A stretch of 64,000 bases of DNA from assembly GCA_965231005.1 (NCBI GenBank), contig OZ246405.1:103204-167203 (forward strand). Direction: 5' to 3'. Position numbers and translations under genes: made by a program. Origin of the DNA: an uncultured Gammaproteobacteria bacterium. Lineage in GTDB: Bacteria > Patescibacteriota > Patescibacteriia > Magasanikbacterales > UBA922. The notes beneath the pieces are model-generated. The model saw only the letters and a list, made by a program, of their open reading frames with translations. It was not told the DNA's origin and did not search any database. Within the stretch, counting starts at the first letter, position 1; each line of letters starts with the position of its first letter. This document shows positions 3,565 to 59,421 of this stretch, in pieces.

Positions 3565-3745
3565 ACATTAAAATTTTAAAAATAAAAAAACCTCTGACTG
3601 ACAGGCTTATTTTTTGTTAAATTCAGTATAACAAATATACAAGGACGCACAAGTGGATAAGTACTCCCTCTTGATACCTTCTATCAGATGTGATATGTTG
3701 CCTTTGGCATTCAGGTTCTTGTAACAACAAAACAAGGAGGACACT

Positions 3746-4696
3746 ATGAAGCCGACACTTTTTGAAGAACTTCTTGCGCTCGGACGATTTCTGGAAGGCG
3801 AGCTTGGCAAGATCCCAAAGGTCCTGCTGATGACTGGCTCTGGCGAGAACGCAATCGGAGAAGCACTCGAAGGTCCGGAGAGCCTGAGATTCCAAGACAT
3901 ACCTGCCATGCAACGCATTCTGGAGGGCAAGCCCCCTCCCAAAGGGCATGGAAGGCGCCTTTTGAAGGGCAAACTTGGAGGAGAAGAAATTGTCGTTTCG
4001 CAAGGGCGATTGCACGGCTACGGTGGATTCAAAGGTCCTGAGATTGTGCTGCTTCAGCAAGCACTCATGCTCATGGGCGTGGAAATCATCTGCCTCAGCA
4101 ATGCTGCAGGTGGTGCAAGTCATCAGTACAAGAAGGGAGATCTGGCCCTGATCCAAGATCTGTGCCTGCTCTTTTGCAACAATCCACTCACAGGTGGAAA
4201 CGACAAACGACTTGGACCGCGAAATCCTCCTGTCGCACCCATGTTCTCCCCGAACCTGAGAGCATATGTTCATCGAATGGCTAAGCAGGCTGGAATTAAT
4301 CTGTCTCCTCACGAAGCAGATTACTTTCCAACATTCGGTCCCCAGTACGACACCCCCATGGATGTAAGGCTCGCAAACGGATGCGGTGCAACAGCAATCG
4401 GGATGTCGACTGTGCCAGCTGCAATTGCTGCTGCACACATGGGAGTACTCCGAATCGGATTCACCAAGATCACGAACATGTGCCCTGGTTACGAACCCAA
4501 GGGTCAGAACGACGAAGACAAGGAACTCGACCACAGTGGCGTGACTGACACCGGAGAAAGGATCACCGAAGAAAAACTCCTCCCGCTTCTCATCGCCATC
4601 CTTCCTGGACTGGTCGAAGCAGCTGGAAACGAGCTGATGATTCCTCGGTCACGACCCTACGCACGACTTCGCGCAGAAGGCTTCCCTGGCTACTAG
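3746..4696 (+). CDS. Purine nucleoside phosphorylase (PNP/MTAP family), encoded in a GC-rich island
   Basis: Motifs LLMTGSGEN, GRLHGYGGF and SNAAGG. Strong RBS AAGGAGGACACT before the ATG. GC content far above the flanks. Confidence 0.7.
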   Translation: MKPTLFEELLALGRFLEGELGKIPKVLLMTGSGENAIGEALEGPESLRFQDIPAMQRILEGKPPPKGHGRRLLKGKLGGEEIVVSQGRLHGYGGFKGPEIVLLQQALMLMGVEIICLSNAAGGASHQYKKGDLALIQDLCLLFCNNPLTGGNDKRLGPRNPPVAPMFSPNLRAYVHRMAKQAGINLSPHEADYFPTFGPQYDTPMDVRLANGCGATAIGMSTVPAAIAAAHMGVLRIGFTKITNMCPGYEPKGQNDEDKELDHSGVTDTGERITEEKLLPLLIAILPGLVEAAGNELMIPRSRPYARLRAEGFPGY

Positions 4697-4727
4697 TTCT
4701 TTTTGGAGACAACCGAACTTACGTTTC

Positions 4728-4765
4728 GAGGCGTACTACACTGTGGTACGCCTCTTTCTTTTTTA
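4728..4765 (+). terminator. Rho-independent terminator after the PNP gene
   Basis: GAGGCGTAC..GTACGCCTC stem followed by a T-run. Confidence 0.7.
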
Positions 4766-5119
4766 AACAATTAACAACTAACAATTAACAATTACCAACT
4801 TAGTATAGAAGATTTTTCGTCGAAAAGTATATTTTATATTATCTAATATCTACTATTTAATATCTAGTATTTTTAGTATAGGTTGCTCTCAACGTACAAA
4901 ACTTCTTTATATATTGCATGCGTTTATTCAATTTATCATCCATCCGGAATACAGATTCTATATATTAGATAATAGATAGTAGATATTAAAACTGTCCATA
5001 TTCTTTAAGAATTTTTCTATGCTAGTTTGTTAGTTGCTAATTGTTAATTGCTAATTTCTTTTTGTGAATATATAATTGAACTAAGCCGATCCCTCGGCAC
5101 ATATCATTAATATAATCAT

Positions 5120-5212
5120 ATGGAATGCACATATTGTGGCGCGCCAGTTGAAGAATTTGCGTGCTATGACTGTGAAGCCTGCGAAGGATGTGGATGCATG
5201 TGTGATAAGTAA
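5120..5212 (+). CDS. 30-aa cysteine-rich peptide MECTYCGAPVEEFACYDCEACEGCGCMCDK (8 Cys); apparently leaderless
   Basis: In-frame ATG..TAA. TATAAT sits 4 nt before the ATG with no SD sequence. Its own hairpin terminator follows directly. Below the size cutoff of the ORF track. Confidence 0.4.
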   Translation: MECTYCGAPVEEFACYDCEACEGCGCMCDK

Positions 5213-5235
5213 TCCATGCAGGAACTCTGTATACC

Positions 5236-5268
5236 AAAACAAGCCCGGATAAGGCTTGTTTTGTTTTT
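5236..5268. terminator. Bidirectional rho-independent terminator (Cys-peptide gene / convergent hrpA)
   Basis: AACAAGCC cggata AGGCTTGTT hairpin with an A-run before and a T-run after. Confidence 0.65.
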
Positions 5269-5326
5269 AAAAAAAATGACAGTAGAGCCAATAAAAGTCT
5301 CTTAAATTTTTTTGCCTTTTTGCCTT

Positions 5327-8300
5327 TTAAGAAAGATGTTCTGCAATCAAATCTTCTGCAGCCATTCTAATTTCATCTGCCGACAATGTCTTATCTTTTG
5401 AAATTTTTATTAATTCTGCCTGAATAGCCTTCAATCCATCGTCTGTTAATTCCCCTTCCCATTCTTTTTCCACAACAGGAACAACTGCCTTTACAATCTG
5501 ATCATATACATCATACCATCGTGTACGGACATTTCCTTCTACAAGTGCTGCTTCTCGTGCACTCCGTTTTGCATCGTTCATAACAGCATCTACTAAACCA
5601 CGAAGTCTATCAATTGCAATGCCTTCATGATCTTCTCTAATCCGTGCCACTCGTCGCGAAACATCTTTCACACGTTTTTTTGCTTTTGCTAAATTTTTTG
5701 CACCACGAATATCATGATTTCCTGCAGGCTCAGTTTCCCGAGTTGCTTGGACAAGAGCCAAAGCAAGATCTAATTGTTTTAATAATGTAGTCCTTTGGTC
5801 TTCTGACTCGTCCTCTCTACGTATTCCTTCTGAAAAAAGCATATTAGAAAGTCTTTCTGCAGTTGGATCCATTGACTTTCCACCTCGTCTCCCTTCTCCT
5901 TGTACTTCATACATGATTGTAGGGTCAATTCCTTTAGCCATAGCAACCTTTGTATCAAGACGTGTTTTTGTCGCAATAGACTCATTTGTATTTTCTTCAG
6001 CTTCTTCCTGTGTACGAAAATATCGAAAAGAAAATTCTGGATTATCACTGTGTCTACCCCATCCTTGTATCCCAAGATAAGCATATATAGGCTGGCCATC
6101 AAACCTATTTCCAATTTCGACCTTCTTTTTTAAACCATGTTCTTGTGCAGTTGGCAATGGTCGCAGTTGCCGTGAAGCAATATTCCTGGGTTGCCCTTCT
6201 TGAGTTTTATAAAAATCCCAAAATTTCTCATCAGTATCCCTACGAACAAATTCATGATAAAGCGAAACAATTGTTCGTCTATCTGAAACATGAAACGGAG
6301 AATCAACAACAGATACCTCTACGATTAATCCATCACGTGCACGACCTAGTCTAGGCATTTCTGCAGGTCCAACTTTATAAATATCTTTTGCAGAAATTTT
6401 TATTTTTGCCTCAAATTTTTCTGGCTCAGTCCGTGAATACAATCTGACCGATCTATACTCTGGCTTATATGAATATTCCACTTCAACATCAACCCCATTC
6501 ATCTGTATTGTTGTTGGATAATATTCATTAAGATCTTCCAATTGTTCAACTTCAATGAGATCTCCTTCTTCTAAAAAGAAATCATCTTGTCTTTCTTCTA
6601 AAGCTGCCTTGGTATGAATATTTCCATGTTCACGTAACTTTCTTTCATACCACCCTGCCATGTCAAAATTCACAGAACTAATTCTTCCTTTTGATCGAGC
6701 ATAATACTGATCTACTCTCTTAATCATTGCCCCATTAATTCTTGTTACTCTTGTATCAACACTCCCTTGAGCCAAAGCTTTTGCAAATCCCTCAACCGCT
6801 AATTCAACATTTCGTATCGGTTCTTTTTTTTCTCCTGGCAAATTTTCACCTGCTCCTCTCACTCGAAATTTTACTGCATTATACACTGAATCAGTTTTTG
6901 GATCATATTTTAATTCTGTTGACTGGCGTTCTAATATGTGCGGCATGACTGCAATCATTTGTTCAGCATTTACTGGATGAATCCCGTGTGCATAATTTCT
7001 TTTTACCTCCATACCTCGTTGTTTTCCACTTCCTTCTGTAATGTGAGAGGTAATTGCAAACAATGGTTTTTTTTCAAAGGCCACAGAACCAGGAGAAGGG
7101 ACGATCGCTTTATACCCTCTTCCATTACTTTCAACCATAGAATATTCAGGTAATCCAAAACCACTATGCACTAAATACATAAGCTGATCTGCATGTGCAG
7201 AAAGAATAACAGCACCCAAGTCATCTGCGCCTGTGCTCATGAGTGTATCTTGATACGTATCCAAATCAATCTTTACTCCAGCATATTTTGCAAAATCTTT
7301 TAACCTGCGCGCAATATTTTTTAAAGTTTTTGCATTTATATAATTTGCTCGACACCATTTTTCTAACTTTTTATTTGCAGCACGACCTTCATTTCCATTT
7401 CTATGAACTGCAGTAAATAATCCTTCATCAACAGCTTTAACAAGAACTGAAATATTTCTTAACCAGTCAGAATCCCCAAGATTAAATTTAGACTGAATCT
7501 CTTTTACTCTTGCACGTGCACTTGCTCTTTTTTCTCTATTATCAAAACCAAACGCCTCATCAACATCTTTTCGTGAAGGACCCATGAACACATTCCCAAA
7601 TTGATTAAACGCAGCAAGAGCAATTGTTGCATCAATACACCCACGTTTTTTTCCTTCTACAATCATTCTTGCAATTCGTGGTTCAAAACCAAGATCTTTC
7701 ATTTCCATTCCAACATCAGTCAATGCTTCTTTTTCATCAAGTGCACCAAGAATTTGTAATTCCTTTATGCCCTGTCTTACAGCATTTGGATCTGGAGCAT
7801 CTATAAAAGGAAAAGTTTTTGGATCTAAGCCATATGATTTCAATCTCAATACAACCTGCGATAAATTTGATTGATGAATTTCAGAATCTGGATGTTGTTT
7901 CAATGCTTCAAATCTCTTTTCTGGAATAAGCCTATAACAATGTCCTTCTTGAACACGACCAGCTCTTCCAGCACGCTGCTCTGCCTGATCTTTTGAAATA
8001 AATCCTGTTCCCATTTCTGTAATTCCTGTGTCTGGATTAAATTTCACAGATCGTTCCCGACATGAATCAACAACAGCAGTAATACCAGGAACCGTTAACG
8101 ATGTTTCAGCAATATTTGTACATACGATGATGCGACGCTGTATTCCTGCTGGTTTCTTTCCTCTTATCACATCTTGTCTATCATCTTCTGGCAACCCTCC
8201 GTAAAGAGGCAATACTTCTAAACCAATATCTTCAAACTTTTGTCCTCTCTGAAGAATCAAATCTTCTAGATGACCAATCGTATCCATAATCTCTCTGCGG

Positions 8301-12192: not shown

Positions 12193-12225
12193 TAGTATAA
12201 CATAAAAAAAATTCTCATTCGATGA

Positions 12226-12254
12226 TTGACGAGAAAGATTATTCCTGGTATTGT
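12226..12254 (+). promoter_or_regulatory. Sigma70-like promoter of the Zn-ribbon mini-operon (TTGACG-17-TATTGT)
   Basis: Hexamers with 17-bp spacing roughly 25 nt upstream of the GGAGGTG RBS. Confidence 0.45.
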
Positions 12255-12279
12255 CTTGTCACGAACACCGGAGGTGGCC

Positions 12280-12468
12280 ATGAGTAAGGTCAGCAATGCG
12301 ATGAAGCAAAATCGCAAACGAAGACGCAACGGATATTGGATTTGTAGCACTGAACATTGGTTTCCAAGGCTGCGAGAACGCAGAAAGTGTGGACAGGTCA
12401 ATCATCCCGGAACTTCTCACTGCTACTACTGTGGTTCGAGAAAACCCAGATCCCAACGGAGGAAGTGA
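12280..12468 (+). CDS. Tiny basic zinc-ribbon protein A (62 aa; YWIC-x14-CG-x8-HCYYCG)
   Basis: RBS GGAGGTGGCC then ATG. C4 pattern. Stop TGA overlaps the next ATG (TGATG). Confidence 0.5.
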   Translation: MSKVSNAMKQNRKRRRNGYWICSTEHWFPRLRERRKCGQVNHPGTSHCYYCGSRKPRSQRRK

Positions 12469-12692
12469 TGACGAAGAAAAAACGCCCTGGTCGCACTGTC
12501 AGAAAACGCGGGCGCAAGCCTGTCCGAACCAAGCCAGATGGTGGCAAGCTGCCCTGGGGTCGAAGTACTCCGCAGGAACGCCGACTCAACCGTCTGATCA
12601 AAAGAGGGGTCGTGAAAAAGCCCGAACCCCTCAAAAAGCGGGTCCAAAGGCGAACGCATCTTCGCGTCGTCCGAGATGGAGACCGCTGGTGA
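12468..12692 (+). CDS. Extremely basic (Arg/Lys-rich) 74-aa protein B, translationally coupled to A
   Basis: ATG overlaps the stop of A by 1 nt. About 40% K/R content. Confidence 0.45.
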   Translation: MTKKKRPGRTVRKRGRKPVRTKPDGGKLPWGRSTPQERRLNRLIKRGVVKKPEPLKKRVQRRTHLRVVRDGDRW

Positions 12693-12729
12693 AAAAAACG
12701 AGGGTTGTGCCTCGTATTGGGAGAAGCCG

Positions 12730-12954
12730 ATGAAAACCAACGAACGACTGATCCGCGCAACCCGCGGAGTCATTGCTGCAACTCGCAGAGGTCCACGCCC
12801 GAAGGTGAAGGGAAAGTCCAAGACGATTCCCTACTGGGTTTGCGAAAAATTCCGCAAGGAAGAAGACACTGAGCCGTGCGGTGCGCACAACTCCATGAAC
12901 GACAAGCGCTGTGTGACCTGTGGCAAAAAGCGCCCAAAGAGAAAGAAAAAGTGA
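12730..12954 (+). CDS. Tiny basic zinc-ribbon protein C (74 aa; YWVC-x11-CG-x8-CVTCG)
   Basis: GGGAGAAG RBS 5 nt before the ATG. Same zinc-ribbon module as A. An alternative upstream ATG lies at 12676. Confidence 0.5.
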   Translation: MKTNERLIRATRGVIAATRRGPRPKVKGKSKTIPYWVCEKFRKEEDTEPCGAHNSMNDKRCVTCGKKRPKRKKK

Positions 12955-13124
12955 GCGAGCATCCAGTTGAAAAAAACGTCAACAAAGACGCTGAAGTTGG
13001 ACTCGCTTCTGATGACGAAGCATACTGGATTTGCTCTGCAAAAATCGACGATGTAGTCTGCTGCCACTGCAACTACGACAGTGATGAGCATTGTATCCGG
13101 TGTGGCGGACCAAAAGCGAACTAG
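12951..13124 (+). CDS. Small zinc-ribbon protein D (57 aa, acidic N-terminus; YWIC-x8-CCHC-x7-CIRCG); GTG start overlapping stop of C
   Basis: GTGA start/stop overlap. Third copy of the YW[IV]C zinc-ribbon module. Confidence 0.4.
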   Translation: MSEHPVEKNVNKDAEVGLASDDEAYWICSAKIDDVVCCHCNYDSDEHCIRCGGPKAN

Positions 13125-13149
13125 TCAGAACAATTCAATAAGGAGTTAG

Positions 13150-13190
13150 CCCCTGAAGCGAACCTCTGTGTCGTCCAGGGGTTTGTTTTA
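13150..13190 (+). terminator. Rho-independent terminator closing the Zn-ribbon operon
   Basis: CCCCTG ... CAGGGG stem then TTTGTTTT. Confidence 0.7.
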
Positions 13191-13793
13191 TGTAATTACA
13201 AAATTAAGTCCATCAACAATATGATCTGCATATTTAGTTGATCCAGCATATGGATGATCTTCTGGTCGAACAACTAAATAAGTATGAACTTGAGGGTGAG
13301 CCTTTTTCACTCGTTCAACATTTTTTGGCTTATCGTCTATAAACCAAATCTCATCATATTCTTTTAAAAAAATTTCTACTACTTTTTCCTTTTGCTTTCT
13401 CGAAATAATTTTCCCAACCTCTTTTGATAAATTGCTGTGCGATATTTTTTCAGTTTGTAATTCTGCATCGCCATGAGTAGCTATAGAAATATAAAAACGA
13501 TCTTTGTGTTTTTCAATAAAATCATGTACATCAGAAAAAACAAATTCCTGTGCATGTTGTTCAATAATATCAATCATTGCGCCATGCATTGCCTCCTTAT
13601 CTGGATGAGAAAGCGATGCAATAAACTTATCAATATCAACGACAACACAACATTTTTTTAACGCATCACGTTTTGCATGGAATTCTTTTGAAGAAATACC
13701 AAAATCGTCTTTGAATCTTTTTTTCAAAACATTAACATACCGTGTTGTATTAAACACGGTATGATCAAAGTCGAGTAAAATTAGTTTTTTCAT
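13188..13793 (-). CDS. HAD-superfamily hydrolase
   Basis: 201 aa. N-terminal LLDFDHT motif (DxDxT-type) and downstream FIDDKPKN-like motif. Confidence 0.65.
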   Translation of the reverse strand: MKKLILLDFDHTVFNTTRYVNVLKKRFKDDFGISSKEFHAKRDALKKCCVVVDIDKFIASLSHPDKEAMHGAMIDIIEQHAQEFVFSDVHDFIEKHKDRFYISIATHGDAELQTEKISHSNLSKEVGKIISRKQKEKVVEIFLKEYDEIWFIDDKPKNVERVKKAHPQVHTYLVVRPEDHPYAGSTKYADHIVDGLNFVIT

Positions 13794-18900: not shown

Positions 18901-18982
18901 AATGTAACTACTATCACCTATTGGAATAGTATACCAAAAAAATGCCCCTGCCCTGACTATTGCCAGGACAGGGACGAAAAGG

Positions 18983-19357
18983 TCACACTCCATGCAAAGC
19001 AAAGAGCTCGTTGATCTCTCCACTCTTGACCTTGTCCAGGTACACTTGTTCATCATTGGTGAATGACACCGGGAGCTCCTGCACAGCCGGAAGCGCCATC
19101 ACCTTCTCAGCATCTCCTTCTTCAAGACACTTGTCCTGCTCCAGAATCCGAGACACCATTGCCTGTGACTGCACAGGTGCAGGATGACGTCCAGTTCCAT
19201 CCTCTGAAATGATGATGATGTGATGGTGATCTCCTGCAGTTTCACAATCACACCGAATCGAAGCTCGTCGTGTAACAGACATACTTCCATAACATTTTTC
19301 GATCCTTATGGCATGATAGTAATCTGGATCCAAGACAACATGGTTGTGTTCACTCAT
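18983..19357 (-). CDS. Hypothetical protein in a short GC-rich (about 50%) patch (MSEHNHVVLDPDYY...)
   Basis: Strong RBS AAGGAGGAAGTC before the ATG. His/Cys-containing (CDCETAGDHHH). No family recognised. Confidence 0.45.
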   Translation of the reverse strand: MSEHNHVVLDPDYYHAIRIEKCYGSMSVTRRASIRCDCETAGDHHHIIIISEDGTGRHPAPVQSQAMVSRILEQDKCLEEGDAEKVMALPAVQELPVSFTNDEQVYLDKVKSGEINELFALHGV

Positions 19358-19569
19358 GACTTCCTCCTTATGGAAGTTGAAAAATTTTGGCAAAACCAAA
19401 ACCCTCTCTTTCGAGAGGGGGTTATGTTGATGAATAGTAAAAAAATATCAAGACAACTCACTCTCGAAAGAGAAAGTTGTTACGACGAAAATTATATTGT
19501 GAATATATCGCATTTATCATATATATTTACCCTAGCATGATTACCTATATACGTCAATACTAAATAAGA

Positions 19570-25419: not shown

Positions 25420-25635
25420 GCTCTGTCTAGAGAAAACTTGAAAAAATCATTTGGCTAAAACGATTCATCATTGAAAACCCTTTTTTGGATGTGTTCAAAA
25501 CTAAACCATCACAAACACCAAACAAAAAACCACCTCTCTTGAGATGGACTTTTGTGTGCGCCGAATGTGAAAGTCCTCCAAGATCTTTCTCGACGCGTAA
25601 TTGTTTCTTCTGGCCAGCGCGACGATCGCGAATGA

Positions 25636-26661
25636 CTAGAAAATCCCCATGAAAGCAGCGGTACAGAACGCAAGCCACAGCACGATCTTGATCACACTCT
25701 CTGTCCGGGTGAGCGTCCAGTCCGTGATCATGAAAACCACGGCGAACACTGTTGACCCAGCCAGGCAGTACAGAATCCACTGCGAGTGCACCCACTCCAT
25801 CTGGATACCGCCCATCCATGCCACCGGAACACCGAGACAGATCAGGATATCAAATGAGTTGGATGCAAACGCGTTTGCGATGGCACCATCCGCATCACCA
25901 CGCTTGGCAGCAAGTACCGAGATCAGCGCGTCCGGCAGTGATGTCGCAGCCGCCAAGATCGTGACGCCAAGCACCGCCTCGGACATGCCATAGTGATGCG
26001 CGAGCTCGAGCCCGGCCTCGACCATGAAGTGACATCCGACACCGATGAGAGCGATGGTGACGAGCGCAAATCCGATGTGCTTGATGACGCTCCCCTCAAC
26101 CTTCTCGTCGCTGCTGTAATTCCAGCTTTGGACGATCAGACCGATGATGTACACCACGTACATGCCGATCATCACCCAGCCTTCCCAGCCGCTCAAGAGG
26201 TGGTAGCCGTCGCCGTTCGCTTTGCCGAAGTAGAGCGCACCGATGAAGAACGCCACGACCAGCAGATACATGACACCGTCGCGCTTGACCACGCTGTGGT
26301 GCACGGGCAGGCCACCGGTCGCGAATGACGAGAGCGCCGGAATCACCAGGATGTTGAAGAGGGCAGAGCCAGCGATGGCACCTGCACCTGCCTCGAACGA
26401 TCCAGCCATCAGCGCTGCGACGACAGTGAAGAACTCCGGCGAACTGCTGCTCACCGCGTCCAAGGTCGCGCCACGCACGCTCGGTGCGATGTTGAAACGC
26501 TTCCCAATCCAGTCGGTCTGCTCGCTAAGCAGTTCGCTGACTTTCCAGATTAGGATGGTGCAGACTAACACCGTTGCAATTGAAATGAACATGTGACCTC
26601 CCAGGCCGTTCGTCCGAAGAAAATATTCCCGTCGGGTCAAAAAAGTCAAAATATTCAACAA
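25636..26661 (-). CDS. CaCA-family cation/Ca2+ exchanger (YrbG-like), GC-rich island
   Basis: Two alpha-repeat regions (GATLDAVSSSSPEF.. and GVTILAAATSLPDALISV). GC content far above the flanks. Probable start MFISIATV after a GGGAGGTCAC RBS. Confidence 0.75.
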   Translation of the reverse strand: MLNILTFLTRREYFLRTNGLGGHMFISIATVLVCTILIWKVSELLSEQTDWIGKRFNIAPSVRGATLDAVSSSSPEFFTVVAALMAGSFEAGAGAIAGSALFNILVIPALSSFATGGLPVHHSVVKRDGVMYLLVVAFFIGALYFGKANGDGYHLLSGWEGWVMIGMYVVYIIGLIVQSWNYSSDEKVEGSVIKHIGFALVTIALIGVGCHFMVEAGLELAHHYGMSEAVLGVTILAAATSLPDALISVLAAKRGDADGAIANAFASNSFDILICLGVPVAWMGGIQMEWVHSQWILYCLAGSTVFAVVFMITDWTLTRTESVIKIVLWLAFCTAAFMGIF

Positions 26662-26671
26662 CTTAGAATCG

Positions 26672-26713
26672 ACGGAAACAGCTCAGTATAGCATAAAAAT
26701 CCCTCTTTGTCAA
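26672..26713 (-). promoter_or_regulatory. Promoter of the CaCA gene (TTGACA-17-TATACT)
   Basis: Consensus hexamers on the minus strand with 17-bp spacing. Confidence 0.55.
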
Positions 26714-26752
26714 GGGATCATTATCTATATTTTGCTAATATAAGCGCTTTTT

Positions 26753-26846
26753 TGCTCCTCCGGCAGGATTCGAACCTGCGACATCAACGTTAACCCCGAT
26801 AGCATTCGCTACGCTCATGTCAATCGGGACACAGCAGCGTGGCTCT
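26753..26846 (-). pseudogene. Degenerate partial copy of tRNA-Asn (3' two-thirds) with roughly 40-nt insertion
   Basis: About 80% identity to the tRNA-Asn acceptor-3', T-arm and anticodon-3' region (GCAGGTTCGAATCCTGCCGGAGGAGCA). It shares GCCACGCTG but cannot form an acceptor stem. Confidence 0.4.
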
Positions 26847-26852
26847 ATTTTG

Positions 26853-28251: not shown

Positions 28252-28283
28252 AAGAAAAAGAGCTTGCCACGAAAGTAGCAAGC
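28252..28283 (-). terminator. Rho-independent terminator after the small-peptide gene
   Basis: GCTTGC tactttcgtg GCAAGC followed by a T-run on the minus strand. Confidence 0.65.
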
Positions 28284-28302
28284 CCATCTCCTTTTTCTCC
28301 CT

Positions 28303-28446
28303 TTACCACAGATTTACCCCTGGTTGAAGCAATACCTTTGTCGTTGATCCCTTGGACTCTGATTCAATCTGAATCTTCATGACCGACAATGCACTGAAAA
28401 TCAACCACAGAAGAATCAACAACCTATGCAGTGTTTTCTTCTTCAT
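28303..28446 (-). CDS. 47-aa peptide with N-terminal signal/TM segment (MKKKTLHRLLILLWLIFSALSVMKIQIESESKGSTTKVLLQPGVNLW)
   Basis: Strong RBS AGGAGGTGAC 0 nt after the upstream stop and 5 nt before the ATG. Below the ORF-track cutoff. Shares a GC-rich island with the upstream ligase. Confidence 0.4.
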   Translation of the reverse strand: MKKKTLHRLLILLWLIFSALSVMKIQIESESKGSTTKVLLQPGVNLW

Positions 28447-28454
28447 GTCACCTC

Positions 28455-29213
28455 CTATGCAACAAGAGCTTGACTATCAAACCTGGCAACCTCCCAAACG
28501 AACTCTGCCCAATCAAGGACTGTTTCGATGTGCTTGGGAGTACCGAGCACGCGAAGCTCAGTCGTACCGAGAACAGTATTGCGGACAAACTCGTATCCCT
28601 GGTCGTCTGCGTGCTCAAGAAAATGATTCTCGTCACGAAAGATAATGGGCGGCACTTCTTGCGGAGCCATGCGTTCGTACAGCTGCAGACGCTTGCCATT
28701 GGAACTATCACCCATCTTCCTAAAGCGCGGCAGTCTTCTCTTGAGACGGTTACTCACCTGGACCTGATGGGCCAGATCTCTACAACCATAGTGGAAGTGA
28801 GTTCCAGCAACGCGGCACGCAGCACGGATCTTCCACTCTGGCATACTTGCTGCCATGGCAAGATACTTTGGATCTGGATAGATGTCATACGGCATATCTT
28901 CAGGAGCCGCCTCCATAGGAACGAGTAGCAGGCCCAGATACACAGCAACAGCTTCTCCTTGCTTCTTTGCTTTGTACAAACCAGCTCGCATTTCACTGAT
29001 ATTGGCGTATGGCTTTATCGGCCGAAACTCTACCTGACAACGCGAGAGTTCAAATGTCCACTCACCAGGAGCAAGCCTTGTCATGATCCTGAGAAACTCA
29101 ACTGCCTTCGGTGTTGGCAAGCCTGTTCTTGGATCTACAAGAAAGAACTCAAGTTCTGGACCAATGTACCCCACCCACTCTTGTTTGAAATGAACCTCGT
29201 TTGCAAAACCCAT
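28455..29213 (-). CDS. GCS2/YbdK-like carboxylate-amine ligase, short form (252 aa)
   Basis: GPELEFFLVD resembles the GxExE(F/Y)xLVD N-terminal motif. THFHYGC matches HVHVGC of YbdK. The C-terminal region is about 120 aa shorter than YbdK. GC-rich. Confidence 0.45.
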   Translation of the reverse strand: MGFANEVHFKQEWVGYIGPELEFFLVDPRTGLPTPKAVEFLRIMTRLAPGEWTFELSRCQVEFRPIKPYANISEMRAGLYKAKKQGEAVAVYLGLLLVPMEAAPEDMPYDIYPDPKYLAMAASMPEWKIRAACRVAGTHFHYGCRDLAHQVQVSNRLKRRLPRFRKMGDSSNGKRLQLYERMAPQEVPPIIFRDENHFLEHADDQGYEFVRNTVLGTTELRVLGTPKHIETVLDWAEFVWEVARFDSQALVA

Positions 29214-29580
29214 GATAACCTCCTTTCAGCACAGTTTTATGCTGGTCAATACCTGCACGCGCATTAACCAAAATAAAAAACTTCTCGTAATACCTGAGAA
29301 GTGTTTGAAGAACATAAACATCAGGTATTACAGATTGCGTAGTACCCACCACCAATTTTTAGAAATAATTACACGTGCATGCATATTATTTAGAAAATAT
29401 TTTTTAGGAATTCTATGAATATTACCACCAGGTCACCTAAATTTTTCACAACCAATATGACCAATAGTCCTCTTGTTATATTTTTGGAATCAATAACACC
29501 ATCCTCCTCTTCCAAACTGAATACTTCCTCCTGTCCTGGCAATAAAATTACATTTTGTCTCTTTTTCATACGCCATAAAC

Positions 29581-40496: not shown

Positions 40497-40520
40497 TTCA
40501 AAAAAACAAATAACATAATA

Positions 40521-40557
40521 AAAACACCTCGCCGCATTGGCGAGGTGTTTTGTGTTT
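40521..40557. terminator. Bidirectional rho-independent terminator
   Basis: ACACCTCGCC gcat TGGCGAGGTGT followed by TTTGTGTTT. Confidence 0.7.
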
Positions 40558-40981
40558 CCTGATCTATATGCTGACAAGCAAGATGTAGATCAGTCTCTCA
40601 CTGCTAGCAACAGCCAGACAAGGCGTATTGCGGGGAGAGAGTGCGAGTGTTTGTACTCACAAACCGTAATATGTATTGTACTGGCTGAAGCCAGCAGTGG
40701 GATAGGAAGTCTTCCCTCACTCCCCCTCTTGTAAAAAAGAGGAAGAGAGTTGGGTTGCGGACGATGGGTTTGAATACATCGTCCGCGAAACCCTCCTTGA
40801 TGAGATTCTGCTGCCGAGGCTTCGTCCTTTCAGACTAGAGGAACATCAATCACCCCTAAATGCTGTTTATGTCATCCACACAACTTCCGCCATCCCGAAG
40901 TGTGCTTCTCTATCAAGTCATTAATCTCCTGTATCGCGTTGCGATGAGTTGTTGAGCCGGACGAACCGACGAGCGGTTGAA

Positions 40982-41806
40982 CTACGCGGCGATCGCGGTG
41001 TCGGACGTGTTGGACGAGGTGTCGGGCTTGGTGGTGTCGGTCTCGAAGTTGGACGACCGACGGGGGATCTCACCGACCGGACCGCGCGGCTGGAACGTGA
41101 TCTCGTCCTGCCGCTTGGCGCCGAACCAGTTCACGCACTGCGAGCGCAGCTCGCCGTACTCGTTGCGCGGGTCGACGCGGATCGGACCGAGGTTGCCGTT
41201 GCGACCGAGGTGCTCACGACGCGTGGCCTCGAACTGCTCGTTCTCGCGCTGCCGACGCTTGTTCACGAAGTTCCGACGACGCGCGCGCTGCTTCTGCCGA
41301 TCCTGCCCCTTGCCGTTGCGCTTGGCCTCGCGCTCGCGCTGCTCAGCCGCCTTCTCCGCCTCCTCCGCCTTGATGTCGGCGACGAAGTCGTCGTAGGTGA
41401 ACGAGAAACGCTCGCACAGCTGGCGGAGCTTGTCCTGATCACCGGCGAAGTAGGCCCGACGACACGCACGGATCGCGCGCTGCAGGTCATGCTCGCGCTC
41501 GCGCATGGTACGCTGGTCGTCCTTCAGGCGCTGCTGGATCTGGGCCTCGCGGACCGCTTCCTTCAGCTCCGTCAGCTTCAGCCCCTTGATCTCGTCATCG
41601 GACATGCCAGCCTGGACGGCCTTGTTCTGCCAGTAGGACGTGGTGCGCTTGTCCGTGGACACGCCGGCCAGGCCCTTGAACATGTTCGGATCGGGCGCGA
41701 GCTCGGACATCTTGACACGCTTCAGACGCGGCGCCATGGACTTGACGTTGACGCGCTTGACGTTGGGGCGCTTGTTGGACGTGCTCTTCTTGCTGCTGCT
41801 AGCCAT
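40982..41806 (-). CDS. Highly charged (K/R/E/D/Q-rich) 274-aa hypothetical protein in a 65% GC segment
   Basis: RBS GGAGAAGAAAA then ATG (MASSSKKSTS...). Coiled-coil-like charged repeats. The antisense 325-aa ORF is Leu/Arg/Val/Gly/Ala-rich, as expected for antisense translation of a GC-rich charged-residue gene. Confidence 0.45.
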   Translation of the reverse strand: MASSSKKSTSNKRPNVKRVNVKSMAPRLKRVKMSELAPDPNMFKGLAGVSTDKRTTSYWQNKAVQAGMSDDEIKGLKLTELKEAVREAQIQQRLKDDQRTMREREHDLQRAIRACRRAYFAGDQDKLRQLCERFSFTYDDFVADIKAEEAEKAAEQREREAKRNGKGQDRQKQRARRRNFVNKRRQRENEQFEATRREHLGRNGNLGPIRVDPRNEYGELRSQCVNWFGAKRQDEITFQPRGPVGEIPRRSSNFETDTTKPDTSSNTSDTAIAA

Positions 41807-42380
41807 TTTTCTTCTCCGTTGAAATGGCAACCTATGTGTAAACTCGGTCTGAGTTCTATAGCGCACCAATCCAGGCACGCCAACCACTGTTTTCTTTCAT
41901 GCACCGTGCAATCAGATAAACACTAGGAGTTCGGTAAATCCCCCCAGCGTATACACCTATGGCTAGGCATACGTTGGGAGAATTTTCCTCAGCAACAATT
42001 GTTGACTTGATATGGAAAGAACGTTTGTTTGTTTGAGTTTGATTCAACAGAGAAGAGCGACGGACGTGTTGGGCAGGTAATATATTTTGTCCCTCAGCTG
42101 TTCGCTCTTTTCTGTTACCTCAAACATACTCTTTCTGCAATCCGGCCTTTAGGCCGGAAAACAAAACACCTTCTTGGTAGAAGGTGTGATGCGAAATGCT
42201 TGAATTTCACTATCTTGTTTATTCGAGTGTGAAACAAGATAATGTACATTTCCACCAATCCTCTCTCCAGAGATGATGAATAGTTGGGTTGTAAGGGCCG
42301 TACCTACGACAAACTCTTTTTGATTTTTAACAGCACAGTATAACACAAAAAAAAGGTTTTGTCAAGACCCTTCCCTGCTT

Positions 42381-54742: not shown

Positions 54743-55216
54743 ATGATTTCTTTAATTGCTGCAATATCAGAAAATAATGTTATTGGTGTTGACAATGACC
54801 TTCCTTGGCATATTCCAGAAGATCTTAAACATTTCAAAGAAAAGACAAGTGGAAAAACAGTGCTCATGGGAAGAAAAACCTGGGAGTCTATTCCAGAAAA
54901 ATTTCGCCCCCTTCCAAAAAGAACAAATATTGTTATCACAAGACAAAAAGATTATAAAGTCCCTGAAGGAGTTGAATTATTTTTTGATATTGAAACGGCT
55001 CTTGAAAAACATAAAGGAGAAGATGTGGTTGTTATTGGCGGTGGAACAATTTACGAACAAACAATTGAAAAAGCAGACACACTCTACATTACTCATGTTG
55101 AAAAAACGATTGATGGCCATGCATTTTTCCCGTCTATAGATACTACCCAATGGAAAGAGACCGAACGCGACAACCGAGAAGGATTCTCGTTTGTTACCTA
55201 CAAAAAAAATGAATAA
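54743..55216 (+). CDS. folA: Dihydrofolate reductase
   Basis: ISLIAAISENNVIGVDNDLPWHIPEDLKHFK, GRKTWESIP and GGGTIYE motifs. Confidence 0.85.
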   Translation: MISLIAAISENNVIGVDNDLPWHIPEDLKHFKEKTSGKTVLMGRKTWESIPEKFRPLPKRTNIVITRQKDYKVPEGVELFFDIETALEKHKGEDVVVIGGGTIYEQTIEKADTLYITHVEKTIDGHAFFPSIDTTQWKETERDNREGFSFVTYKKNE

Positions 55217-55229
55217 CTAATAAACAAAT

Positions 55230-55273
55230 AGCCTTTTGAGCCTTTATGGCTTTTAAGGCATTTAAAGCCTTTT
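55230..55273. repeat. Copy 5 of the GCCTTTAAAGGC palindromic repeat family, upstream of tmk
   Basis: GCCTTTTGAGCCTTTATGGCTTTTAAGGCATTTAAAGCCTTTT. Confidence 0.7.
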
Positions 55274-55276
55274 ATT

Positions 55277-55984: not shown

Positions 55985-55993
55985 AAAAGTAGT

Positions 55994-56731
55994 ATGCTTA
56001 TATCAGCAAAAGATCTGATCAATCGAAGTATCGATCTTTACAAAAATAAATCAGAACATCTTCTTCCATATGTGTGGCTTCTCCTTATCCCAACAGGACT
56101 CACTGGATTAGTTCAAATGTGGACAGAATTTAATGGTGAAGTCTTTTCAATTACATCAATTGTTCTTGCAATTATCTTCTCAATCTTTAGTTTGTGGTTT
56201 ACTGTTGTCTTTATCCGTGTTATTGCAGAACTATTTGAAAATAGACAACCAAAAGGCATGAAAAAAGAACTTGAAGAAGCACGCCACCTTATTATTCCAA
56301 TTATTATCGCATCAATTTTAAGTGGTTTAGCAGTTATTGCTGGACTTATTCTATTTGTTATCCCTGGAATCATCTTTGCAATTTGGTTTGCGTTTGTAAG
56401 TCAAGCAGTTGCTCTTGATCATAAAGAAAACGGGGGTGCACTTAGAATGAGTAAAGCACTTGTCCAAGGAAGATGGTGGGCAGTATTTTGGAGACTCCTT
56501 GCACCAGGATTTGTATTTACAATCTTCATTTGGATTGTACAAGCAATTGTTGGCCTTCCACTTGGATATTTACTAGGTCTATTTGAGCCAAACTCAAGCC
56601 TCTTTATCTTAGGTTCTGTACTATTTGTCCTTGCTATGGCGCTTGTTGCTGTATTATTTGTACCGCTTGTTACAGCAGCACCAACACTCCTCTATCTTGA
56701 GCTAAAAAGAACAATGTCAAAGAAGAGTTAG
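55994..56731 (+). CDS. Polytopic membrane protein of unknown function
   Basis: 245 aa, about 6 TM. Confidence 0.45.
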   Translation: MLISAKDLINRSIDLYKNKSEHLLPYVWLLLIPTGLTGLVQMWTEFNGEVFSITSIVLAIIFSIFSLWFTVVFIRVIAELFENRQPKGMKKELEEARHLIIPIIIASILSGLAVIAGLILFVIPGIIFAIWFAFVSQAVALDHKENGGALRMSKALVQGRWWAVFWRLLAPGFVFTIFIWIVQAIVGLPLGYLLGLFEPNSSLFILGSVLFVLAMALVAVLFVPLVTAAPTLLYLELKRTMSKKS

Positions 56732-56797
56732 AAAACAAAAAATGAAAAAAGGCTCTCAATTGAGAGTCTTTTCAATTTAGCATGAGAATGGTACTAT

Positions 56798-58354
56798 GTG
56801 TCTATGAATACATATCAAGCAATCATTGGAATGGAGGTGCATGTAGAGCTCAAAACACTGAGCAAGATGTTTTGTAGTTGCAAAAATGAACCTGAACTAA
56901 AAGATCCAAATACAAATATTTGTGAAATCTGCCTTGGTCATCCTGGCACACTTCCTGTTCCAAATAAGCAAGCAATTATTTGGACAGCACTTATTGGAAA
57001 AGCACTTGGCTGTTCAATACGAGATCTGTCAAAATTTGATAGAAAACACTATTTTTATCCTGACCTTCCAAAAGGATATCAAATATCACAGTATGATGAG
57101 CCAATTGCTGAACATGGCAGCATAACACTCCGTTTCCCGCTTGAAGATAATATACGAGATGAAGCAGTCATTGGGATTGAACGGGCTCATTTAGAAGAAG
57201 ATACAGCTAAATTGCTGCATAATACTGACAAAAGCACACTTGTGGATTTTAATCGAGCAGGGACACCACTTGTAGAAATTGTTACAAAACCACATTTTCG
57301 TTCTGCGCTCGAAGCAAAAGTATACTGCCAAGAATTGCGCACACTTTTTCGATTCCTTGAAGTAAGTAATGCAGATATGGAAAAAGGACAGATGCGATGC
57401 GAAGCAAATGTGTCTGTCCAAGAGGCAGGAAAATTTGAAATTGTTGATTCAATTGTAAAACCACTTGGAGACTATGAACTTAATGCAAAAGTTGAAGTAA
57501 AAAATATAAATTCATTTAAGGCAGTTGAAAAAGCAATTGAATTTGAAATCAAAAGACAAACTGAAATGCTAGAAAAAGGAGAAACATGGGTGCAGCAAAC
57601 TCGCGGCTGGAATGAAAATACAAATGAGACAGTGCTTCAACGAACAAAAGAAAATGCTGCTGATTATAGATACTTTCCTGATCCAGATATTCCACCATTT
57701 CATCCAAAAGAACTTTCAAAAGATGTTAGCATTCCAGAACTTCCTCAGGCAAAGCGTATCCGTTTTCATGAAGAATATGGTTTTTCATATGCTGACGCAA
57801 ACATATTGGCAAATACAAAAAAATGGGCAAACTTTACTGAATCAGTCATGAGTGAATTGGTTGAATGGCTCTATGCACTTCCAGAAGTAAAAGGAGAAAG
57901 TGATGAGATTAAGGAAGAAAAGAAATCAAAGATAGCCCGCCTTGCAGGAGGATGGATTACTACAAAATTAATGGGGATCATGAAAGAAAAAGGACTTGAT
58001 GTTTCTGATCTTCAGGTGTCAGCAGAAAATTTTGCAGAATTAATTGCATTGGTATATACAAAAAGAGTCAACTCTACAAATGCGCAAAAAATTCTTTTGG
58101 AAATGGTTGAAAGTCCTACAGACAAAGACCCAACACATATTATGGAAGAAAAAGGATATGGACAAATATCTGATGAAGGTGCGCTCGGAAAAACAATTGA
58201 TGATGTCATTAAGAATCATCCAAAACAGGTTGAACAATTTAAGTCTGGAAAAGATCCTATTATCAAATTTTTGATTGGAATGGTTATGAAAGTAACAGAA
58301 GGAAGTGCTGATCCTGCTGTTGCTGAAAAGATGTTGAGAGAGAAGTTAGGATAA
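56798..58354 (+). CDS. gatB: Asp-tRNA(Asn)/Glu-tRNA(Gln) amidotransferase subunit B
   Basis: N-terminal IGMEVHVEL..CSC motif, GatB central region, C-terminal YqeY-like domain. Confidence 0.9.
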   Translation: MSMNTYQAIIGMEVHVELKTLSKMFCSCKNEPELKDPNTNICEICLGHPGTLPVPNKQAIIWTALIGKALGCSIRDLSKFDRKHYFYPDLPKGYQISQYDEPIAEHGSITLRFPLEDNIRDEAVIGIERAHLEEDTAKLLHNTDKSTLVDFNRAGTPLVEIVTKPHFRSALEAKVYCQELRTLFRFLEVSNADMEKGQMRCEANVSVQEAGKFEIVDSIVKPLGDYELNAKVEVKNINSFKAVEKAIEFEIKRQTEMLEKGETWVQQTRGWNENTNETVLQRTKENAADYRYFPDPDIPPFHPKELSKDVSIPELPQAKRIRFHEEYGFSYADANILANTKKWANFTESVMSELVEWLYALPEVKGESDEIKEEKKSKIARLAGGWITTKLMGIMKEKGLDVSDLQVSAENFAELIALVYTKRVNSTNAQKILLEMVESPTDKDPTHIMEEKGYGQISDEGALGKTIDDVIKNHPKQVEQFKSGKDPIIKFLIGMVMKVTEGSADPAVAEKMLREKLG

Positions 58355-58371
58355 AAAGGCTCCAAAAAAAT

Positions 58372-58408
58372 TCACCCCCCGACGTTGTCGGGGGATTTTT
58401 TTCCTTCT
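58372..58408. terminator. Bidirectional rho-independent terminator
   Basis: CCCCCCGACG ttgt CGGGGG followed by ATTTTTTT. Confidence 0.75.
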
Positions 58409-58416
58409 AATAGTTC

Positions 58417-59253
58417 TTACAAATCTCGAACCTTTCGGATGAAATCAGCACACCACGGCCAGTGACATTCGTAGAGATACAAGTCGAACGCTTTCTCTTC
58501 TCCGACTGGAGGTGATTCAACAAGATCAAAGCGAACGTGGACATCTCCGAGTTGGTGGAATAGCAGTTCAGGAATGCTTGTGGCACCATGTTCTGTAGCA
58601 ACCACGACTCGAACCCACTGCGCATCGGGAAGTGCTTGAGCAAGCGCTTTCATTCCTTTTGCACGAGGAGTCATGATGACATCACAGGATTCAGCCAGCC
58701 GATCCAACTTTTTATCTTTTGCCCAAGCAAAGGAACGCATTCTTCCTTGCTTGTCACCGCGTGTACCGTCTGGGAACAGTTGAATGCAGATTTTACTGCC
58801 TGGGAAACGTTGAACGCCTGAACGAATCGCAGGGACTGCCTGCGTAGCATCACCTCGATCGACAAGGACACCCCCAAGCATTTTTACAGCCCAACCAAAT
58901 GGGCCCCTTTTCAGCTCGATCTTGCCAATAGGGATAAACAAATGCTTTTTGAAGAGTTTGTCCACTGCAGCAGCGTATTCTGGAAGTTCATGTGCAAATG
59001 GATGTGGGCCCCACACCACGACTGGCCGATCTGGATCTAAGCCCATCAAATTGACCTCGAGGATTACCTTGCGGCCAAAAGCGATGCGTAAGACAGGAGC
59101 GATCCATGGGCCCCACTGATGTGCAAACCAATTGGCATGTTTTGCCGAGAGGAACACACCAGATAGGAGCGCAAGCAACACAACAAGGCTGCTAATCATG
59201 AATGCGACTAATACACCGAAAAGAACCCGAAAAGCTCTTAAAAACGCCCTCAT
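58417..59253 (-). CDS. Membrane-anchored lysophospholipid acyltransferase-like protein (PlsC/LPLAT family), GC-rich (about 50%)
   Basis: FPDGTRGD matches acyltransferase motif III (FPEGTR). The N-terminal TM is present; the HxxxxD motif is not clearly conserved. Confidence 0.45.
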   Translation of the reverse strand: MRAFLRAFRVLFGVLVAFMISSLVVLLALLSGVFLSAKHANWFAHQWGPWIAPVLRIAFGRKVILEVNLMGLDPDRPVVVWGPHPFAHELPEYAAAVDKLFKKHLFIPIGKIELKRGPFGWAVKMLGGVLVDRGDATQAVPAIRSGVQRFPGSKICIQLFPDGTRGDKQGRMRSFAWAKDKKLDRLAESCDVIMTPRAKGMKALAQALPDAQWVRVVVATEHGATSIPELLFHQLGDVHVRFDLVESPPVGEEKAFDLYLYECHWPWCADFIRKVRDL

Positions 59254-59421
59254 ATGCCCTCCTTCTTGGGAATACAGCAGTACTCAACCAAGAAATACAC
59301 TATCTCAAAGGAGATAGATGAGTGTTCTGTGAAAAGACCTTACCATGGTCTTCTGAGTAGTGTCAAAATGCGGATTTATCCCCTTGCCCTCATATGTATA
59401 GTATGATACTATCCAAACAGT

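Follow-up and report, generated by a model that had tools for sequence, protein, structure and literature searches.

Genomic islands and other transferred genes account for up to 13% of genome length in Patescibacteria, where DNA uptake is the likely route of entry, competence and pilus genes are prevalent, and most transfers take place within the group (PMC12455944). We analysed a 64-kb stretch of contig OZ246405.1 (the window; positions are counted from its first letter), which belongs to the chromosome of an AT-rich, Parcubacteria-like bacterium of the Patescibacteria, or Candidate Phyla Radiation (CPR), and of an isolated lineage. The window carries seven short GC-rich islands, each with one gene or a small operon, that together make up about 13% of its length. 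These islands resemble the islets described for Patescibacteria in their atypical GC content and codon usage, in the over-representation of genes of unknown function, in their transport and metabolic cargo, in the ~13% share, in uptake as the likely route and in having one island by a tRNA gene; at the same time, the donors here appear to be high-GC bacteria from outside the CPR, while the described transfers are mostly within Patescibacteria, and here the acquired genes are led by Shine-Dalgarno (SD) sites while the native genes are without them (PMC12455944). Classical genomic islands likewise differ from the core genome in composition and codon usage, but they typically exceed 10 kb and hold many genes, whereas the islands of the window measure 0.4–1.7 kb and carry no mobility genes. 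Only island 4 lies by a tRNA gene, with a degenerate copy of its 3' part; the other six have no flanking repeat above chance. The usual framework for reading the composition of acquired genes is Lawrence-Ochman amelioration. With a probability of about 0.68, we read the seven islands as the outcome of several independent lateral transfers from high-GC donors, with each acquisition cut back to a single expression unit.

Sliding GC analysis (a 400-nt profile together with a finer segmentation that used 120-nt windows and GC above 0.46) singled out exactly seven segments of more than 350 bp whose GC content is far above that of the background, at about 49–56% in surroundings of ~36–38%. They lie at 3696-4776 (island 1, 52% GC), 12213-13197 (island 2, 51%), 18911-19294 (island 3, 49%), 25504-26976 (island 4, 54%, a tRNA-Asn gene included), 28419-29224 (island 5, 50%), 40514-42178 (island 6, 56%) and 58371-59286 (island 7, 49%); the window as a whole averages 38.1% GC and its 49 backbone genes 36.4 ± 2.4%. 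An earlier note on this DNA had placed seven GC-rich islands in an AT-rich backbone at almost exactly these coordinates, and the gene content agrees with what it gave them, namely a purine nucleoside phosphorylase (PNP), a Zn-ribbon operon, a 124-aa His/Cys-containing protein, a CaCA exchanger, a ligase with a peptide, a charged protein and an acyltransferase-like protein.

When the island proteins were re-encoded with backbone codon frequencies, the expected GC of their genes was 0.40–0.43, against 0.48–0.66 observed, leaving an excess of 7–25 points per island gene, and the GC difference is therefore synonymous and not a matter of amino-acid content. The excess is concentrated in third codon positions: GC there (GC3) is 0.44–0.90 in the island genes and 0.234 ± 0.032 in the backbone (n = 49 genes, maximum 0.31), which puts the island genes at z-scores of 6 to 21. 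Uniform codon usage after correction for amino-acid composition, which the earlier note had named as telling against foreign origin, was thus not what we found. These values bear directly on the idea that the composition reflects what the islands encode (their amino-acid content, a structured RNA or strong expression) and not where they came from, an idea that can point to the Arg/Gly/Ala-rich proteins of islands 2 and 6, to the long non-coding flanks of island 6 and to the tRNA-Asn gene, which adds to the GC peak at 26852-26926. The third-position excess argues against it, and so do the ribosomal protein L25, GyrB and GatB genes, which are as AT-rich as the rest of the backbone. Moreover, Rfam finds that tRNA as the only RNA gene, so that no more than a small part of one GC peak can be put down to structured RNA. 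Overall, we regard an explanation by encoded content as very improbable.

Codon choice also varies among the islands. Island 6 uses almost only CTG, CGC, AAG and GAG, and island 4 is likewise strongly GC-ending, while islands 1, 2 and 7 keep host-like preferences for GAA, GCA or GGA. Composition-normalised trinucleotide signatures put islands 2, 4 and 6 outside all 98 backbone windows and islands 1, 5 and 7 within the backbone range; island 3 is not long enough to be compared fairly. In islands 1, 5 and 7, GC at first codon positions (GC1, 0.62–0.65) exceeds GC3 (0.44–0.53). Under the Muto-Osawa and Lawrence-Ochman relations, GC1 above GC3 is the mark of a gene from a donor of ~60% GC whose third positions have partly decayed, and we infer such an origin for these three islands, although values from single genes are noisy. 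Since codon preferences and trinucleotide signatures differ from island to island, several events (at least two donors, or different times) are indicated, and not the fragmentation of one island. The earlier note had reached the same view that this is not one large island, and it holds up on location as well: the islands are scattered over 55 kb between intact housekeeping genes, in both orientations, and no gene is disrupted.

A second marker of the islands, beyond GC, is the presence of an SD site, which sets them apart from the backbone in a way missed in the earlier note. We listed the 25 nt upstream of each start codon and computed duplex energies with a generic anti-SD sequence: a duplex of -6 kcal/mol or stronger was found for 10/10 island genes (mean -11.2) and for 2/49 backbone genes (median -0.2), a difference with a Fisher p of 1e-9. 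The strong AGGAGG-type ribosome-binding sites that the earlier note had described are seen as GGAGG-type sites at all ten of these island genes, 4–9 nt before the ATG. A pattern scan added one or two possible SD cases in the backbone, for example at an alternative start at 35801, and left the contrast unchanged. Backbone leaders are AT-rich and without SD (for example at starts 3564, 9148, 28204, 39974, 43577 and 60486), often with a TATAAT-like box 10–20 nt before the ATG. This suggests that native genes have very short leaders or none, and the organism appears to begin translation mostly without an SD site.

The other expression signals are of a different kind. TTGACA-17-TATACT promoters matching 11/12 consensus positions precede islands 4 and 6, where they sit in AT-rich sequence at the island edges, and the same consensus precedes the tRNA-Asn gene and several backbone genes, so that the promoters are of native type and no sign of foreignness. 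The total count of promoter-like sites in the region is not above that of shuffled sequence, and we rejected the consensus promoters as evidence of foreign origin on both grounds. Terminator-like hairpins, on the other hand, are enriched (23 and 29 found, about 13.5 expected), and a hairpin with a T-run closes each island, as found by scans for islands 1, 3, 4, 5 and 6 and as read by eye for islands 2 and 7. The earlier claim that several islands have promoters and terminators of their own therefore stands for the terminators at all seven islands and for the two near-consensus promoters, with the reservation that promoters of this type are the host's. Each unit is best described as a foreign open reading frame (ORF) with its SD site, preceded by a host-type promoter and followed by its own terminator. 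Phage morons, described by Hendrix, Juhala and colleagues, reportedly have a comparable design, with a single gene of alien composition that has its own sigma-70 promoter and factor-independent terminator and lies between conserved phage genes. The islands are alike in being single genes with a promoter and a terminator and with a composition unlike that of their neighbours, but these neighbours are chromosomal housekeeping genes, and the islands gave no significant PHROG, phage or viral-contig match.

The backbone into which the islands are set encodes glutamine synthetase, HrpA, a glucose-6-phosphate dehydrogenase / 6-phosphogluconate dehydrogenase (G6PD-6PGD) fusion, a class I Trp/Tyr-type tRNA synthetase, RNase J, L25, FtsW, GyrB, GatB and pyrimidine-synthesis enzymes. 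The fused gene lies at 9808-12192 on the minus strand and encodes 794 aa. Full-length relatives of the fusion protein are 43–58% identical in many CPR metagenome-assembled genomes and 49–50% identical in Actinomycetes and Coriobacteriia, and its best matches in a species-level genome collection are Parcubacteria-type metagenome-assembled genomes at no more than 58% identity. All island and backbone proteins that were tested are singletons at 90% identity.

Could the islands have arisen in assembly, through chimerism or through contaminating high-GC reads that were joined to an AT-rich contig? All assemblies come from one read set, run ERR2281800, and their source is a metagenome. The PNP protein is on record in the 1,232,850-bp NCBI contig and in the ENA and Logan assemblies of that run; an ENA MEGAHIT contig (L001) reproduces window positions 1-14696 at 100% identity, a Logan contig (L002) positions 3002-4725 at 100% identity, and a second MEGAHIT contig (L143) positions 53713-64000 with one mismatch. 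Three assemblers thus give identical junctions for islands 1, 2 and 7 from the one read set. Moreover, each island fits an intergenic gap exactly, with a host-type promoter and a terminator, and seven precise single-gene chimeras are not credible; we consider an artefact very unlikely. The sole difference between the NCBI contig and L143 in 10,288 bp is non-synonymous (P196T, in the 58668 region) and falls in the island 7 acyltransferase gene.

The relatives of two island proteins point to GC-rich genomes. For PNP, the best homologs after the self-match are 37% identical, and the two that could be placed come from contigs of 65% GC, with a GC3 of 0.80–0.90. For CaCA, 521 homologs were found, the best of them 55–57% identical. 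Two of the three top-match contigs that were fetched are GC-rich, one of them labelled Polyangiaceae (67.5% GC) and the other (64% GC) carrying myxobacteria-like kinase and TPR genes; the third, L087, is an AT-rich genome with a GC-rich CaCA gene. CaCAs annotated as Patescibacteria are only ~31% identical to the protein of the window and are remote from it in a neighbour-joining tree, in which it takes a long branch beside a clade from 62–68% GC contigs. In a metagenome scan, CaCA genes normally matched the composition of their own genome, including those on AT-rich marine contigs (GC3 0.13–0.33), and because homologs in AT-rich contigs are AT-rich, GC-richness is not intrinsic to the family. 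The earlier note would have counted AT-rich versions of the same genes in sister genomes against import; the nearest available version of that comparison, made with these CaCA homologs in other AT-rich genomes, leaves the import reading standing. Together with the foreign codon usage that differs per island, the high-GC relatives of PNP and CaCA support its proposal of repeated single-gene acquisition from higher-GC donors. For the remaining islands, actinobacterial ligases among plasmid records are 28–31% identical to the island 5 ligase, the island 7 protein has no match among plasmid records, and the proteins of islands 2, 3 and 6 are without family or homolog.

Island 4 (25504..26850, minus strand) is the one for which an insertion site may be recognised. 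Its CaCA cation antiporter gene (25636-26592, 318 aa, GC3 0.75) encodes two PF01699 (Na_Ca_ex) repeats (1.6e-45), which place the protein in the CaCA family as a predicted YrbG-type Ca2+/Na+ antiporter; TIGR00367 matched full-length at 150.8 bits, below its cutoff of 179.65. Its signals on the minus strand are the TTGACA-17-TATACT promoter at 26713-26685, a leader hairpin CCGTCG...CGACGG at ~26673-26627, a GGGAGG site and a terminator at 25547-25530. Directly upstream is an intact, native tRNA-Asn(GTT) gene (26852-26926, minus strand; Rfam tRNA, 66 bits). Between this gene and the CaCA promoter, inside the GC-rich segment, there is a degenerate copy of the tRNA-Asn 3' part (~26752-26846, minus strand), in which the anticodon-loop GTTAAC is retained, the T-arm and acceptor are 21/24 identical and the T-stem is GC-richer. 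The remnant looks like the scar of an integration at a tRNA gene, and the tRNA-Asn gene marks a possible integration site for island 4. At the same time, the remnant adjoins the tRNA and not the far end, and no second tRNA-Asn copy was found at the distal end of the island. Placement directly downstream of a tRNA gene with a diverged 3' tRNA duplicate at the boundary recalls tRNA-targeted integrative elements, which island 4 does not match in that its remnant lies between tRNA and cargo and that it has neither an integrase nor a distal repeat. Directly downstream of the CaCA island, a gene at 25042-25419 (minus strand, 125 aa) encodes a SET-domain protein and, at 27.8% GC, is the most AT-rich gene of the window.

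The tRNA remnant also bears on the suggestion that single-gene cassettes are inserted by a dedicated capture system, either integron-like or working through a tRNA-targeting integrase in trans. This would fit the neighbourhood of the CaCA gene in L087, which also lies beside a tRNA gene (tRNA-Ala), with tRNA-like fragments seen by eye, and the cassette-array-like layout of four ORFs with a repeat in a second AT-rich contig, L101 (both contigs are described below). In the window, no flanking direct or inverted repeat or target-site duplication above chance, no motif common to the island boundaries, and no integrase, transposase or other recombinase in the islands or the flanking genes examined could be found; the islands are dispersed and in both orientations, do not match the L101 repeat, and only 1/7 adjoins a tRNA gene. 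The capture mechanism that the earlier note had offered as an alternative is thus unsupported in the window, where there is no array either. Integron cassettes and clusters of attC sites lacking integron-integrases (CALIN) share with the islands the single-ORF units of foreign composition, and with L101 the co-oriented array with a repeat, but the window holds neither attC-like repeats nor an integrase, and its units have a promoter and a terminator each, unlike integron cassettes. In addition, the L101 repeat lies upstream of the ORFs and contains a ribosome-binding site, in which it differs from attC. We therefore think it quite improbable that a capture system built the islands, and return to separate acquisitions.

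Two other AT-rich contigs carry GC-rich CaCA genes of their own and provide the closest comparison for the expression units. In L087 (also L091; FLOH01000043.1, 428 kb), the flanks are 36% GC and the CaCA gene, which adjoins the tRNA-Ala gene, is 54% GC; in L101 (JGI Ga0208904_1000178) the values are 38% and 55.5%. The two contigs come from related genomes and share a neighbourhood, with ComM 91%, LspA 60% and CaCA 61% identical, and their CaCAs are sisters in the tree. Both show the split seen in the window: an SD site is present at genes with GC3 of at least 0.44 and absent from those with at most 0.36. Further small GC-rich genes without a Pfam family are present in both, and in L087 the segments 3342-4222 and 7440-8000 hold GC-rich, SD-led genes for a 97-aa Cys-rich and a 104-aa basic protein. 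On both sides of the L087 tRNA-Ala gene, the tRNA-like fragments mentioned above were noticed by eye. L101 has, at 4300-7500, four consecutive co-oriented GC-rich ORFs (118 aa, 187 aa, CaCA and a 97-aa membrane protein), with a conserved repeat of ~190–230 nt preceding 3/4 of them in full and a partial copy before the 118-aa ORF. The repeat contains hairpins, a palindrome with 15-nt arms and, at its end, a GGGAGG SD site; it has no Rfam match, and a search of the window with a profile built from it was negative. Ahead of the L087 CaCA gene stands a hairpin of similar shape that carries compensatory changes.

We also measured how far these two CaCA genes have diverged. Synonymous sites are saturated, the proportion of synonymous differences being 0.78 for CaCA against 0.585 for LspA and ComM; at 113 conserved fourfold sites only 32% of third bases are identical, and nonsynonymous divergence (dN) is 0.31, against 0.29 for LspA. 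GC3 is nevertheless 0.63 in L087 and 0.61 in L101, with a backbone at ~0.3. A rough two-state relaxation, with a backbone synonymous divergence (dS) of ~1.1, predicts that an import with GC3 of ~0.9 just before the split of the two contigs would now stand at ~0.5. We had taken the pair as proof that GC-richness is maintained and withdrew this, given that a backbone dS of ~1.1 still permits incomplete amelioration. A crude scan of other AT-rich loci for GC islands, tried as a density control, was dropped as too unspecific.

These results feed a different explanation, in which the GC-rich, SD-led genes form a maintained class, kept high in GC either by selection (for message structure or stability, or for slow translation through rare GC-ending codons) or by renewal from a GC-rich pool, and in which the SD site is obligatory, as structured GC-rich messages cannot initiate in the way that unstructured AT-rich ones do. 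The recurrence of the GC3/SD split in L087 and L101 speaks for it, as do the GC-rich sets of these contigs, which include small Cys-rich or basic proteins without a Pfam family akin to islands 2 and 3, the retention of GC3 values above 0.6 by CaCA genes with saturated synonymous sites and a dN like that of LspA, the place of the L101 SD within a repeated leader of ~190 nt before GC-rich ORFs, and the fact that the island proteins of the window are very divergent or orphan, which is unexpected of recent imports. On the other hand, the ~0.5 expected under slow amelioration is not far from the 0.62 observed, so that amelioration is still adequate; the spread of GC3 from 0.44 to 0.90 and the differing codon preferences suggest different ages or donors and not one optimum; the CaCA family elsewhere adopts the composition of its host; and only CaCA among the window islands has an ortholog in L087 and L101, with the window CaCA in a different clade. 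We hold a maintained class to be unlikely. A broader version, to which we also give little credence, would have two gene populations in AT-rich, SD-less Patescibacteria: native AT-rich genes with short or no leaders, and a persistent GC-rich set, with many orphans and many small proteins of Zn-ribbon or basic type, behind native promoters and SD leaders, sometimes in cassette arrays as in L101, and long held at high GC by selection or by continual renewal from a GC-rich host or partner pool.

Several observations count against acquisition from high-GC donors and were weighed with it. No donor was found, and the identities of the nearest homologs are low (37% for PNP, 55–57% for CaCA and ~30% for the ligase). 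Nor is there a sister genome by which the insertions could be dated, the best backbone match in the genome collection being at 58%. Three islands have no detectable homolog or family, which fits unsampled donors and also long residence; a long stay should have levelled out the GC difference. The promoters are of host type and lie in AT-rich sequence, and to call the units foreign expression modules would therefore be too simple. In L101, the SD site lies within a repeated leader of recipient origin, and because of this recipient-side position the SD may be a need of GC-rich messages in SD-less cells and not a relic of the donor. Finally, the CaCA genes of L087 and L101 have kept their high GC3 despite synonymous saturation and in a conserved neighbourhood.

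What carries the import reading are the discontinuities in composition, codon usage and SD sites, the intact flanks, the absence of mobility signatures and the high-GC affinity of PNP and CaCA, and we infer the identity of the donors, the entry route, the pruning, and the expression and usefulness of the island genes. In the history that we propose, seven pieces of DNA from higher-GC organisms (at least two donors, probably more) would have entered intergenic positions between housekeeping genes. Entry may have been by DNA uptake and illegitimate recombination, a route in keeping with how widespread competence and pilus genes are in Patescibacteria (PMC12455944), and in one case, island 4, perhaps by integration at a tRNA gene. 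Deletion would then have left, of each piece, only one selected gene or small operon. In each resulting unit, a native-type sigma-70 promoter would drive transcription, a canonical SD site would start translation, and the unit's own hairpin terminator would mark its end. Age or donor would differ among the islands, with 6, 4 and 2 still strongly alien and 1, 5, 7 and probably 3 partly ameliorated to the host. That the cargo is useful to a reduced genome, as the earlier note suggested, is plausible for the predicted PNP and CaCA.

Island 6 (40514..42370, minus strand) is the most GC-rich of the seven. Its orphan gene (40982-41806) encodes a charged helical protein of 274 aa and has a GC content of 65.6% and a GC3 of 0.90. 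Several ORFs overlap here, and the one on the minus strand is the real gene because its GC1/GC2/GC3 of 0.61/0.45/0.86 over a 301-aa ORF has the pattern of a high-GC gene. The promoter (TTGACA-17-TATACT, 42365-42337) is followed by a leader of ~530 nt with a GGAG site; the 3' sequence of ~430 nt is of intermediate GC, with a hairpin and T-run seen by eye at ~40807-40766 and the terminator at 40551-40521. In searches of 5.8 billion clustered proteins and, with a full phmmer run, of 1.84 billion representatives, the protein matched only itself; viral contigs, phages and plasmids yielded no match for it, and PDB sequences none that was significant. Its AlphaFold model (pLDDT, the model's confidence score, 73) has a long helical hairpin-like core at residues 50-200 (pLDDT ~90) with disordered basic ends, and no fold match was obtained for it. 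Rfam at a permissive threshold gave only sub-threshold noise in the long leader and trailer. These ~530-nt and ~430-nt flanks of intermediate GC, apparently non-coding, could derive from a larger insert that is decaying. A terminator-like hairpin at 42187-42166 (minus strand) lies ~150–170 nt after the promoter and well before the ORF start at 41806, and could belong to a small RNA or an attenuator-type leader. Beside the island, an AT-rich gene (40023-40496, plus strand, 29.5% GC) encodes a protein of 21-nt (7-aa) tandem repeats (KRFEKVDERFDQID...).

Island 1 (3600..4776, plus strand) has a promoter-like site at 3671-3699, a GGAGG at 3736-3740, the PNP gene at 3746-4696 (316 aa; 53.6% GC, GC3 0.53) and a terminator hairpin at 4728-4754. 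The protein matches PF01048 (PNP_UDP_1) at 2e-25 and 89.8 bits, above the cutoff of 25.1, and stays below the equivalog cutoffs of NCBIfam PRK08202 (166 against 218 bits) and TIGR01697 (158 against 197), so that by its sequence it is a predicted divergent member of the purine nucleoside phosphorylase superfamily. Between this island and the next gene there is an AT-rich nested palindrome, with outer arms at 4767-4800 / 5032-5065 (ACAATTAACAA-type repeats) and inner arms at 4844-4870 / 4962-4988; AACAATTAAC motifs resembling it also occur at 9732-9778 and 53588-53687. A small ORF at 5120-5212 (plus strand), without SD, encodes a peptide of 30 aa, ten of them cysteines (MECTYCGAPVEEFACYDCEACEGCGCMCDK), and a strong terminator comes after it at 5235-5263.

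Island 2 (12213..13197, plus strand; GC3 0.55) is an operon for four small, very basic proteins, encoded at 12280-12468 (62 aa), 12468-12692 (74 aa, no Cys), 12730-12954 (74 aa) and ~12954-13124 (56 aa), all on the plus strand, and a hairpin with a T-run was read directly at ~13150-13190. GGAGG or GGGAG sites precede the first three genes; the start of the fourth is uncertain and without SD. A YW[IV]C...C...CxxCG zinc-ribbon motif is present in three of the four proteins, whose family matches are all sub-threshold (RanBP2-type zinc finger, 0.002; Nup153 zinc finger, E 0.1). The fourth protein gave the sole PHROG match among the islands, a weak one (E 0.0033) to a 43-position family of unknown function. 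Island 3 (18911..19400, minus strand; GC3 0.46) encodes the 124-aa His/Cys-containing protein at 18983-19357, with an AGGAGG five to six bases before the ATG, a terminator at 18975-18944 and a leader hairpin at 19402-19419. No Pfam, NCBIfam, PHROG or PDB sequence match was obtained for the protein, and its AlphaFold single-sequence model (pLDDT 44) was unusable.

Island 5 (28255..29224, minus strand; GC3 0.49–0.54) comprises a gene for a YbdK/GCS2-like carboxylate-amine ligase (28455-29213, 252 aa) and then one for a hydrophobic peptide (28303-28446, 47 aa), both on the minus strand and both with AGGAGG sites, and ends in a terminator at 28285-28260. The ligase passes the Pfam cutoff for PF04107 (GCS2; 8.5e-8) with a match to only the N-terminal half of the family model (positions 2-157/291), and it falls short of a full-length GCS2 protein, with 252 aa against ~370 aa and ~290 model positions in the family; judged from these matches, it is a putative truncated or strongly divergent YbdK/GCS2 relative. 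Island 7 (58365..59286, minus strand) encodes a PlsC-like acyltransferase (58417-59253, 278 aa), with an AGGAGG four to five bases before the ATG and a hairpin CCCCCGAC...GTCGGGGG with a T-run, read directly, at ~58395-58366 on the same strand. The protein has one N-terminal hydrophobic segment, an FPDGTR motif, and HPFAHE (H-x4-E) where HxxxxD is expected; its matches to PF01553 (2e-4, 21.5 bits against a cutoff of 23) and TIGR00530 (1.6e-7) are both below cutoff, which makes it a weak candidate for a PlsC-like acyltransferase. Elsewhere in the window, intergenic arrays with a 9-nt period (AAAGGCYTT / TAAATGCCT type) occur at 15508-15568, 35032-35152, 50136-50289, 54564-54754 and 55228-55288, several of them inverted around a short centre (for example 50149-50191 and 50240-50282); they are a dispersed family of repeats like repetitive extragenic palindromes and are unrelated to the GC islands.

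Lateral transfer into CPR bacteria is already documented, and in this respect the basic event is ordinary, if unusually clean in its form here. Beyond routine are the split between imported and native genes in SD use, the GC3 0.90 orphan, and the recurrence of a GC-rich, SD-led set in AT-rich contigs, in one of them as an array separated by repeats. GC3 and SD are two independent, nearly binary markers of foreignness, and together they could list acquired genes throughout the 1.23-Mb genome and in its relatives without recourse to donors. Parcubacteria-type cells rely on others for nucleotides and ions, and the cargo, with its ties to high-GC bacteria (myxobacteria-like for CaCA, bacteria of 65% GC for PNP), offers a concrete lead to the partner or host organisms of such cells. 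Should the GC-rich genes be a maintained class after all, one bacterium would contain a two-tier system of translation initiation, and the pairing of GC and SD would mark a functional compartment, possibly tied to host association, and not the transient debris of import.

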